The notes under the pieces were generated by a model, which saw only the letters and a program-made list of their open reading frames with translations, was not told the DNA's origin and did no database searches. 64,000 nt of DNA, from the sequence record PP355091.1; one strand, given 5' to 3'. Below, piece after piece: positions 12,525 to 15,253 of the stretch; position 1 is the first letter of the stretch, and every line of letters starts with the position of its first letter. Origin of the DNA: Escherichia phage 235Ecol030PP. The position numbers and the translations under genes were made by a program.

Positions 12525-12803
12525 TCAAAATGTAATTTCTAACCAATCACCATCACGCTGATCACTATTGACTTTAAAGCTGAATCCTTCTTTTCTCAGC
12601 CAATCACCAATTTCTTCAGTAATCAATTTATCACGAGCAATACAATAATAATTAAAATGTGTTTTACCTTGTTCAGCTGCTTTATTAGCAAGTTCCGAAA
12701 AATCTTTAATAAAACACTCTAGCTTAAACTGTTTACTTTTGAATGCTTTTTCGCGTAATTGATTAGCAAAAGATTCATTTTCATAAAGATCATACTGTTC
12801 CAT
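12525..12803 (-). CDS. hypothetical protein (position of T4 24.2)
   Basis: 92-aa ORF, ATG start, packed between rnlB and next ORF. Confidence 0.55.
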   Translation of the reverse strand: MEQYDLYENESFANQLREKAFKSKQFKLECFIKDFSELANKAAEQGKTHFNYYCIARDKLITEEIGDWLRKEGFSFKVNSDQRDGDWLEITF

Positions 12804-13005
12804 TTTTCACCTTTTTATTGATATGTCTTTTTCTATAGACAACTTTTTCTCGAGTTTCAAATTTATTTTTAGCAGTCATAGCTCGAGCCCATAATACAGC
12901 CACTTCTTTTGCCTGTAAGTTTAATTCACGAGCAATTTCAATGAATGACTTTCCAGACTCATGAAGAGTAAACACCACAACCTCAGTTCTCATAATCAAT
13001 CTCAT
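12790..13005 (-). CDS. hypothetical protein (position of T4 24.3)
   Basis: 71-aa ORF, ATG start. Confidence 0.5.
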   Translation of the reverse strand: MRLIMRTEVVVFTLHESGKSFIEIARELNLQAKEVAVLWARAMTAKNKFETREKVVYRKRHINKKVKNGTV

Positions 13006-13073
13006 GTTATCGAGTTGGTGCCATTATATACATCATTTTCTGATTGTGTTTTGTGTGCTTTCAAAATGAAGAA

Positions 13074-13089
13074 AGGGGCCGAAGCCCCT
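13074..13089 (-). terminator. terminator after hoc (UUCG loop on minus strand)
   Basis: Minus strand AGGGGC UUCG GCCCCU then UUUCUUCAUUUU. Confidence 0.6.
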
Positions 13090-13094
13090 TATGA

Positions 13095-14513
13095 TTATGG
13101 ATAGGTATAGATGATACCAGTTTCTAAAGCAGTTTTATGAATGATGTATCCATTACGCGATTCTTGAACATCAACTTCTGGATAGTCTTTCATCATCTTC
13201 TGAAGAGTGTAACGATGCAGGTAGTATTTACTATCTGGATCTTCAGTTTTCCAATCTTTACCTTCTTCGGTCATTTTTTGGATTTCATCCATAACCCACC
13301 AACCGCACCAGATATAAGCTGAAGTACGGTGTGGAAGAGGATGAACATAAGGCAATTCACCTTTTGGTTCCGGAGCAACTTTATCAGTTACCTGAACTTG
13401 ACCTGTTGTTTTAACTGTTTTGCTATCATAGTCAGTTGCTGTAACGACAGCAGTAACTTCAATAGTTTGACTTCCAACAGATGAGGTATCGACAGTATAT
13501 ACGTTAGTTGACCCTTCTACAGGAGAAGAATCTTTCTTCCATGAGTAAGTAATTTGTGCTGCTTCAGGTGCGCCAGTAACATTAGCAGTAAATGTAGCCG
13601 AAGCATCTTTCTGAACGTTAATAGAAGGAGGAGTCAATGTAACCTGTGGATTCATTGTCTTCTTATTAACCGTTAATGATACTTCATTCGAAGTAACTTC
13701 CTTTTCATTGTAATTTTCTGCAGTTACTTGGGCTACGCATTTAATTCTTTTTACTCCACTTGTAGTTGGAGTATAGCTAAATGTAGAGTTAGTTTCTCCA
13801 CTAATTTGAGAATCATCTACATACCATTTATATGTAGCAGACGCTCCATCAGGTTGAGAAACTAAAGCAGCAGTAAATTGAACCGGGGTTCCAATTACTC
13901 CTGCTGGAGGACTATCAGGAGTTACTGCCAAAGTAGTTGTCTGCTCCTTTTTATTAACAGTCAGTGATACTTCATTAGAAGTAACGCTTAGTGCATCATA
14001 ATCTGTCGCGGTTACTTGAGCTACACACTTAATTTTTTTAACTCCGCTTGTGGCAGGAGTGTAATTGAATGTAGCGCTAGTTGCTTCGTCCACAGGAGAA
14101 CCGTCAACGTACCATTGATACGTAGCAGATGCACCTGATGGCTGTGAAGCTAAAGCAGCAGTAAATTCAATAGCTGTTCCGATTACTCCAGCGTCAGGGC
14201 TATTAGGAGTTACAGCTAAGGTAGTCGTTTGTGTCTTATTTTGAACTGTGATAGTTGTACTAATTTCAGCTGTTTCGGGACTACTATCGGCAACTTGATT
14301 TGTTGCAACTACTTTAATAGTCTTTTGACCGGCAGGTCCTTTTAATACATAATTAAAAGTTGCTGACGTTTCTTCCTGTTGAGCACCGTCTACAGTCCAA
14401 ACATATGTAATAGGTCCATCTCCAGTTTGACCACTGGGTGTAGCAGTAAACTGCTGAGTCTGATCTATAACTCCAGTAGGTGTTTTAGGAGTTATATCAA
14501 CTGTAAAAGCCAT
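13095..14513 (-). CDS. hoc: outer capsid decoration protein Hoc with an extra tandem Ig-like domain
   Basis: 472 aa; N-terminus MAFTVDITPKTPTGVID and C-terminal capsid-binding region match T4 Hoc; internal 96-aa unit present twice. Confidence 0.9.
   Translation of the reverse strand: MAFTVDITPKTPTGVIDQTQQFTATPSGQTGDGPITYVWTVDGAQQEETSATFNYVLKGPAGQKTIKVVATNQVADSSPETAEISTTITVQNKTQTTTLAVTPNSPDAGVIGTAIEFTAALASQPSGASATYQWYVDGSPVDEATSATFNYTPATSGVKKIKCVAQVTATDYDALSVTSNEVSLTVNKKEQTTTLAVTPDSPPAGVIGTPVQFTAALVSQPDGASATYKWYVDDSQISGETNSTFSYTPTTSGVKRIKCVAQVTAENYNEKEVTSNEVSLTVNKKTMNPQVTLTPPSINVQKDASATFTANVTGAPEAAQITYSWKKDSSPVEGSTNVYTVDTSSVGSQTIEVTAVVTATDYDSKTVKTTGQVQVTDKVAPEPKGELPYVHPLPHRTSAYIWCGWWVMDEIQKMTEEGKDWKTEDPDSKYYLHRYTLQKMMKDYPEVDVQESRNGYIIHKTALETGIIYTYP
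13659..14234 (-). repeat. tandem duplication (2 x 288 bp) inside hoc encoding two consecutive Ig-like domains
   Basis: Protein units TQTTTLAVTPNSP...SLTVNKK and EQTTTLAVTPDSP...SLTVNKK, about 75 percent identical. Confidence 0.8.
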
Positions 14514-14522
14514 AAGTTATCC

Positions 14523-15203
14523 TTATTTTAATGTTACGAAAGAAGAATTGCGTGTTTCACGAATTAGAACTGATCCGTCACGATTAATGTAGTAAATTAA
14601 GCTAAATAAAGTTTGGTGTGCTGACGCGTGTTCAAAACTAGTTGGATGAGATTTCCAATCAGGAGTTTCAGCGATCCATTGATAAATCCACCAAGGAACC
14701 GTACAGAATCCTGGATTTTTCCCCAATAATTGAAGATTCGGACTAAAGTTTTCCGGAAGAGTAAATACAGACGGCTTTTCAGATTCAATAATCTCAGCTA
14801 CAGCCTGTTCGAATTTTTCTTCAACAAAAGGAGTATCTTCAATCAAAACATCGGTATTTTCAGGAATTTTATCCGTTTCTACTACTTCAATTTTAATGTC
14901 AGATTTAACAGGAGAATCAATCAGAAGTGCTGCTTCTGGATTGACTTCTTCATCGTCATATTTTAACCCCTCTGCAGCATCAGCAGCATCAATTAAGTCT
15001 TTAATAGATAACCCATCAGTCTCTGGCATAGGTTCACTAGCGAGCTTCTGGAGGGCTTCTTCAATATCAGCAACGATATTATCAAAAGATTTATTCTTTT
15101 TGACCTTTATACCAAACTGTTCAGCGTATTCAGCTAATTTAGCTTTAGCTTCTTTGTTATCATCAAGAGCCTTCAGCTCTGCAATATAATCTTTATCTAT
15201 CAT
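14523..15203 (-). CDS. inh: inhibitor of prohead protease
   Basis: 226 aa acidic protein between hoc and uvsW as in T4. Confidence 0.7.
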   Translation of the reverse strand: MIDKDYIAELKALDDNKEAKAKLAEYAEQFGIKVKKNKSFDNIVADIEEALQKLASEPMPETDGLSIKDLIDAADAAEGLKYDDEEVNPEAALLIDSPVKSDIKIEVVETDKIPENTDVLIEDTPFVEEKFEQAVAEIIESEKPSVFTLPENFSPNLQLLGKNPGFCTVPWWIYQWIAETPDWKSHPTSFEHASAHQTLFSLIYYINRDGSVLIRETRNSSFVTLK

Positions 15204-15216
15204 AATATTTCCTCAG

Positions 15217-15224
15217 TATAAATA
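15217..15224 (+). promoter_or_regulatory. late promoter TATAAATA for uvsW
   Basis: Exact TATAAATA about 30 nt before uvsW ATG. Confidence 0.65.
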
Positions 15225-15253
15225 TAGATATATTTATTACATGGTATTTAGAC

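Follow-up and report, generated by a model that had tools for sequence, protein, structure and literature searches.

An intact hoc gene with two tandem domain-2 units in Escherichia phage 235Ecol030PP belongs to an old and widespread allele class of T4-like phages

Results

The window analysed here, a stretch of 64,000 nucleotides from Escherichia phage 235Ecol030PP (PP355091.1), carries on its minus strand an open reading frame at 13095..14513 that encodes 472 amino acids plus a stop codon (ORF list), corresponding to a protein with a predicted mass of 50.8 kDa and a pI of 4.73. It lies downstream of inh and upstream of 24.3, 24.2 and rnlB on the same strand, which is the position of the hoc locus, and the gene order rnlB-24.2-24.3-hoc-inh-uvsW is shared with T4, RB27 and AR1. 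Over its first 25 kb, the window shares about 97% identity with many Tequatrovirus genomes, among them KK4, vB_EcoM_F1 and RB27. A Shine-Dalgarno-like AAGGA (14520..14524, minus strand), read off the sequence, is situated 6 nt before the hoc ATG and overlaps the inh stop codon. A terminator-like, GC-rich hairpin, AAGGGGCTTCGGCCCCTT, with a T-rich tail follows 4 nt past the hoc stop codon (13073..13090, minus strand; consensus scan and sequence), and a terminator is annotated at the matching position in phages NBG2 and fPS-90. No exact copy of the T4 late-promoter core, TATAAATA, was found in the region just upstream of inh-hoc on the minus strand; the nearest exact copy is located at 15217-15224 on the plus strand and faces uvsW. 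Across the whole window, this core occurs 18 times as compared to 8.5 expected occurrences, and none of 100 shuffles reached 18. The homing-endonuclease gene segE is absent between inh and uvsW (15204-15253), as it is in RB27; it is present between these genes in T4 and AR1. The gene 24.3 homologue (12790-13005, minus strand) encodes 71 aa, the same length as in AR1; its counterparts in T4 and RB27 have 56 and 67 aa, respectively.

The reading frame is very probably an intact hoc of a Tequatrovirus (T4-like coliphage) that encodes four Ig-like domains and a C-terminal domain. The protein matched the PDB chains of T4 Hoc (5vf3, 8t1x, 8t9r, 9mkb, and 9mof, all of 376 aa) by phmmer with an E-value of 6e-211, and the alignment extends to the last residue. 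Its pI is nearly that of T4 Hoc (4.74) and falls within the acidic range of about 4 to 5; acidity is a trait of Hoc homologues emphasised previously (PMC10385173). Pfam models PKD, BiPBP_C, Ig_3, and I-set matched over the repeat and the domain that follows it, and AlphaFold2 (50-sequence alignment) predicted four beta-sandwich domains with pLDDT values mostly above 90. Together with Foldseek, which retrieved multi-Ig strings (Dscam, Sidekick, ICAM-5, adhesins) and the Hoc of phage RB49 (3shs, E-value 1.6e-10) from the PDB, these predictions describe an N-terminal string of Ig-like domains of the PKD/I-set type, as is typical of Hoc. The confidence of the AlphaFold2 model applies per domain only (pTM 0.54).

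Domain 1, the N-terminal Ig-like domain (aa 1-93, 14235..14513), was modelled as a beta-sandwich with a pLDDT of about 90-95 and is identical to T4 domain 1 at 69 of 93 residues. It is followed by two copies of a domain-2 unit, here termed copy A (aa 94-189, 13947..14234), which is extra as compared to T4 and was recognised by Tandem Repeats Finder, alignment, Pfam (BiPBP_C/PKD), and AlphaFold2 (pLDDT 89-96), and copy B (aa 190-285, 13659..13946), which has a Pfam PKD match at residues 195-267 and a pLDDT of 93-96. The fourth Ig-like domain, domain 3 in T4 numbering (aa 286-378, 13380..13658), has Ig_3 and I-set matches at residues 289-356 and predicted strands at 290-376, and is identical to T4 domain 3 at 84 of 96 positions. 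The capsid-binding domain at the C terminus (aa 379-472, 13098..13379) was assigned by homology with T4 Hoc and was poorly modelled (pLDDT 35-65). Its last 91 residues are identical at 88 positions (dN 0.014) to the T4 capsid-binding domain, which comprises about residues 281-376 of T4 Hoc. The residues H395 and R396 are invariant across the alignment of 50 homologues and are equivalent to His299 and Arg300 of T4, which contact gp23 (PMC10385173). All features lie on the minus strand.

Tandem Repeats Finder reported a period of 288 nt in 2.0 copies (13659-14225, 75% matches, score 638), and the two full units occupy 13659-14234, i.e., exactly residues 94-285. Copies A and B align in register and without indels, with 70 of 96 amino acids and 210 of 288 nucleotides identical (73% each), a two-unit repeat that is far beyond chance. 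T4 hoc (NC_000866, 110187-111317) has 1131 nt and 376 codons and is thus exactly one unit shorter; alignment of the two proteins leaves one clean gap of 96 aa, with 86% amino acid identity elsewhere. An earlier note on this DNA had proposed, from the letters and the open reading frames, that this Hoc is one Ig-like domain longer than that of T4, that residues 94-189 and 190-285 are two copies of one unit, and that the regions on either side are T4-like. The comparison bears out each of these points: the reference T4 Hoc has 376 aa and a single domain-2 unit, the flanking domains are conserved as given above, and both units were matched by Pfam and confidently modelled by AlphaFold2 as Ig-like beta-sandwiches with the same strand pattern.

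Synonymous divergence was compared among the units of the window phage, 310Ecol104PP, RB27, UGKSEcP2, which has three units, and T4 (AR1 was left out of this table). Within the window gene, copies A and B differ with a dS of 1.19 and a dN of 0.19 (dN/dS 0.16); 44 of their 78 mismatches over 288 nt fall on codon position 3. Copy A has a dS of 0.07-0.24 to the first-position units in the other four phages of the comparison and of 0.98-1.19 to the B units. Across the multi-unit phages in the table, dS was 0.07-0.34 between A units, 0.00-0.38 between B units, and 0.94-1.34 between A and B units in every comparison. The single unit of T4 is closer to B units (dS 0.27-0.33) than to A units (dS 0.69-0.85). 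In the direct comparison, T4 domain 2 is identical to window copy B at 83 of 96 amino acids and 251 of 288 nucleotides (dS 0.33), and to copy A at 80 of 96 amino acids and 234 of 288 nucleotides (dS 0.75). T4 domain 2 is hence the orthologue of copy B, as anticipated in the earlier note, and copy A is the unit absent from T4. These values identify A and B as old paralogues that have not been homogenised. They predate the split of the window phage, 310Ecol104PP, RB27, UGKSEcP2, AR1, and T4, and both units are under purifying selection.

The two copies differ mainly in their loops. Of the 26 amino acid differences between A and B, 17 lie outside the predicted strands, which is an enrichment (Fisher p 0.023), and column entropy among 128 distinct units was 0.59 outside strands versus 0.26 within them. 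As a separate observation, the otherwise B-like domain 2 of T4 (L001 2752-3039) contains near its 3' end a patch of 54 nt, encoding the loop TATDYDALS, that is identical to window copy A (13947-14234). It looks like a gene-conversion or recombination patch.

A megablast search with the window hoc matched 678 phage records. The query was fully covered in all of the 40 best matches, nearly all of which span exactly 1419 nt, and in a sample of 60 records taken at even steps down the ranking, 22 span 1419-1425 nt and about 30 have a T4-like span of about 1131 nt. Query coverage of at least 80% is unusable for counting two-copy genes, because both copies of the query align to the one unit of a single-copy gene, which then scores 100%. 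This statistic was replaced by the span in the record and by a tblastn search in which the query was a peptide of 58 aa across the A/B junction (E-value of at most 1e-10, one HSP across the junction). A single HSP crossed the intact junction in 245 phage records from GenBank, with RB27, AR1, Yersinia phage PST, and slur03 among them; in single-copy hoc genes, such as those of T4, T2, RB51, and RB7, only the 3' two-thirds of the peptide were matched. The window gene shows the arrangement that defines the two-unit variant, i.e., an A-type and then a B-type unit of 96 aa, joined as ...SLTVNKK|[TE]QTTTLAVTP... Among the best 120 protein clusters (90% identity), 79 have 376 aa, 29 have 472 aa, 8 have 568 or 570 aa, and 4 have other lengths; among the Tequatrovirus-type hoc genes of GenBank phage records, about 40% specify four or five Ig-like domains. 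The junction records and the length census show that a five-domain Hoc is common and already annotated. The rarity of the 472-aa Hoc implied by the earlier note does not hold: it is an old, ordinary and widespread allele class (RB27, AR1, PST) that is already known, deposited and annotated as hoc.

Tandem repeats in general are a known source of assembly error. It is nevertheless barely conceivable that the repeat in this genome is a mis-joined or expanded product of sequencing or assembly. Specific support for such an artefact was not found, the reading frame is intact, and RB27 hoc has the same 1419 nt and the same two-unit architecture. Between the copies, 78 of 288 positions are different, so that reads map unambiguously. 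This divergence (27%), the intact frame, and the junction shared by 245 separately deposited records rule an artefact out. A recent duplication private to the 235Ecol030PP lineage, which would make its Hoc unique, has practically no probability either. The nearest hoc in the phage collection, that of 310Ecol104PP, is only 97.2% identical at the nucleotide level (97.5% at the amino acid level), i.e., the exact window allele is absent from the collection. However, the A-B dS of 1.19 speaks for an old duplication, in line with the diverged DNA repeat described in the earlier note, and a private origin is refuted by the orthologous A and B units of RB27, 310Ecol104PP, and UGKSEcP2 and by the 245 junction records.

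When the domain-2 units of 117 cluster representatives and the window protein were classified, they proved to be mosaics in which a small number of discrete loop types are combined. Central loops are of type A (SPV.EATSATF), B (SQVGGETNSTF) or C (SLVDGETTTTFNYTPTTVGAKTV), and the F-G loop reads DYDALS, ENYNEKE, DYDAKT, DYD[AT]KE or DDYNAKE. The units of the 38 multi-copy representatives follow the order A, B, C in the arrangements A-B, A-C, B-C, and A-B-C, except for a few that include b/a hybrid units, a single A-A, and a further one whose second unit is unclassified; the orders B-A, C-A, and C-B do not occur among the 38. Of the single-copy genes, 35 carry a central loop of type A, 32 of type B, 5 of type C, and 6 a hybrid loop. 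The same small set of discrete segment types recurs in different combinations from allele to allele, which points to recombination and suggests that domain 2 is, as judged from these sequences, a cassette array of one to three copies that is reshuffled by recombination.

Concentration of allelic variation at a limited set of loop positions would also be expected if the two units were the variable and template repeats of a diversity-generating retroelement (DGR), but hypermutation of this type is, as judged from the comparison of the repeats, extremely improbable here. Both repeats are coding units of one open reading frame, and the alleles share few discrete, shuffled segment types. The differences are not confined to template adenines, as they would be in a DGR target. 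Instead, all four bases are represented among the mismatches in each copy, and together with the share at third codon positions and the dN/dS of 0.16 this indicates ordinary divergence rather than adenine-specific mutagenesis.

Discussion

The window hoc and T4 hoc (NP_049793, 376 aa) are the same gene at the same locus and on the same strand, and both encode acidic proteins. T4 Hoc differs in lacking copy A and is 96 aa shorter (40.4 versus 50.8 kDa). In contrast, the proteins of RB27 (AIT74544), 310Ecol104PP (WLY86368), AR1 (YP_009167995), PST, and about 240 further records have 472-474 aa and the same succession of domain 1, copies A and B, domain 3, and the C-terminal domain as the window protein. 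The gene has 1419 nt in the window phage, RB27 (KM607000), and 310Ecol104PP and 1425 nt in AR1, with the same neighbours, and the A and B units of the window gene are by dS orthologous to those of RB27, 310Ecol104PP, and UGKSEcP2. Differences from the Hoc proteins of 310Ecol104PP (97.5% amino acid identity) and RB27 (88.8%) are allelic only and include loop segments that are shuffled differently, e.g., RB27 copy B ends with DDYNAKE and window copy B with ENYNEKE. The Hoc proteins of 568-570 aa from UGKSEcP1, UGKSEcP2, and metagenomic relatives have the same domains 1 and 3, the same C-terminal domain, and the same cassette family and order, but additionally possess a third, C-type unit with the SLVDGETTTTFNYTPTTVGAKTV loop, which the window phage lacks. 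Eight such three-unit proteins are among the best 120 clusters of the protein collection (P0001-P0008), and the hoc of UGKSEcP2 (L004 1006-2718) has 1713 nt and encodes units A, B, and C within a string of five Ig-like domains and a capsid-binding domain.

Variation in the number of Ig-like domains in Hoc is an already published principle. About 650 Hoc homologues keep the overall architecture with 1 to 10 Ig-like domains, 10 in Serratia phage Muldoon and 1 or 2 in others (PMC10385173). The RB49 protein (3shs) is about 18% identical to the window protein in a structural alignment and had no phmmer match at an E-value below 0.001. Among RB49 and the wider Hoc-like proteins domain number varies between genera, whereas the variation described here is a polymorphism within one genus. 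Our literature search recovered the general variation in Ig number (PMC10385173) and a variant lacking domain 3 (PMC11853027), but no specific account of a Tequatrovirus Hoc with 472 aa or four Ig-like domains, no description of a within-genus copy-number polymorphism of domain 2, and no functional data on any 472-aa (two-unit) Hoc.

Most likely, this Hoc functions as a capsid-anchored adhesion or dispersal fibre that is one Ig domain longer than that of T4. Given the 97% identity of the binding domain, the protein would be placed on the capsid as a non-essential, monomeric decoration protein, with the C-terminal domain binding one Hoc molecule at the centre of each gp23 hexamer, i.e., 155 per capsid. 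The Ig-like domains would then project outward as an acidic fibre. T4 Hoc is a fibre of 180 Angstrom in which three Ig-like domains are set on a capsid-binding domain at the C terminus (Fokine and colleagues, PMC10385173). That a longer Hoc projects further from the capsid can reasonably be inferred: if the length of the T4 fibre over its four domains is extrapolated linearly, one further domain would add 4-5 nm and yield a fibre of about 22-23 nm as compared to 18 nm in T4. However, T4 Hoc has been proposed to adopt a horseshoe (bent) shape (PMC10385173), so that an additional domain does not necessarily lengthen the fibre in proportion. The Hoc of a T4-like phage without domain 3 (three-domain variant) binds MUC2 fucose via domain 2 (Fu and colleagues, PMC11853027). 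A two-unit Hoc would put two non-identical domain-2 surfaces on show, which could mediate weak adhesion to glycans, mucus, and bacterial surfaces or contribute to particle dispersal.

Changes in the number of units (one, two or three) within the phage population most likely result from unequal homologous recombination between the conserved ends of the units. The ordered units and the dS values fit with an old ordered array in which copy number changes in this way, and from which T4 is possibly reduced. The proposal that the multi-copy array is ancestral and the three-Ig Hoc of T4 a deletion derivative concerns the direction of change only, not the identity of the feature, and in our judgement has a little less than an even chance of being correct. 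Synonymous divergence between A and B is about three to five times that of orthologous units and flanking domains (dS 0.94-1.34 versus 0.15-0.38), a fixed order of A, B, and C is the expectation for deletions from an ordered array, and single-copy alleles carry A-, B-, C-type or hybrid central loops. The same pattern, however, would arise if old, divergent single-copy alleles had been joined by unequal crossover and the product then spread by recombination, and the cluster representatives are phylogenetically non-independent. Moreover, the T4 unit is B-like with an A patch near its 3' end and not the chimera with an A start and a B end that a simple A/B deletion would leave. It is tempting to extend the model of an old, ordered A-B-C array to one that is continually reshuffled, of which T4 is a reduced form, and in which the reach, avidity or glycan specificity of capsid adhesion in the gut is tuned by the number and type of cassettes; we offer this only tentatively, as a proposal somewhat more prone to be wrong than right.

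For the window itself the significance is small, as its hoc is an ordinary allele of a frequent length variant that is found in many deposited genomes, such as RB27 (accession from 2014), AR1, and PST. Cassette polymorphism within the genus is of modest interest for comparative genomics and does not constitute a new kind of system. It does mean that T4 is not a safe default for Hoc architecture when annotating T4-like phages, engineering Hoc display or comparing mucus adherence. The natural one-, two-, and three-cassette alleles also provide a ready-made series for studying the effect of fibre length or domain-2 valency on adhesion.

Several database records of hoc are themselves irregular. 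The gene seems to be fragmented or frameshifted in some of them: that of T2 (PV958097) is annotated in three pieces over a span of 1117 nt, and the two-unit hoc of OR887633 and MZ501066 is split into two CDSs. Such records may represent pseudogenes or sequencing errors. Apparent mislabels were encountered as well. Two Hoc homologues (P0028 and P0072) carry the name 'endonuclease' and are listed for Shigella sonnei and Bacillus cereus, and MG010123, a 32-kb record of 'Staphylococcus phage SAJK-IND', carries a hoc that is 93% identical to that of the window.
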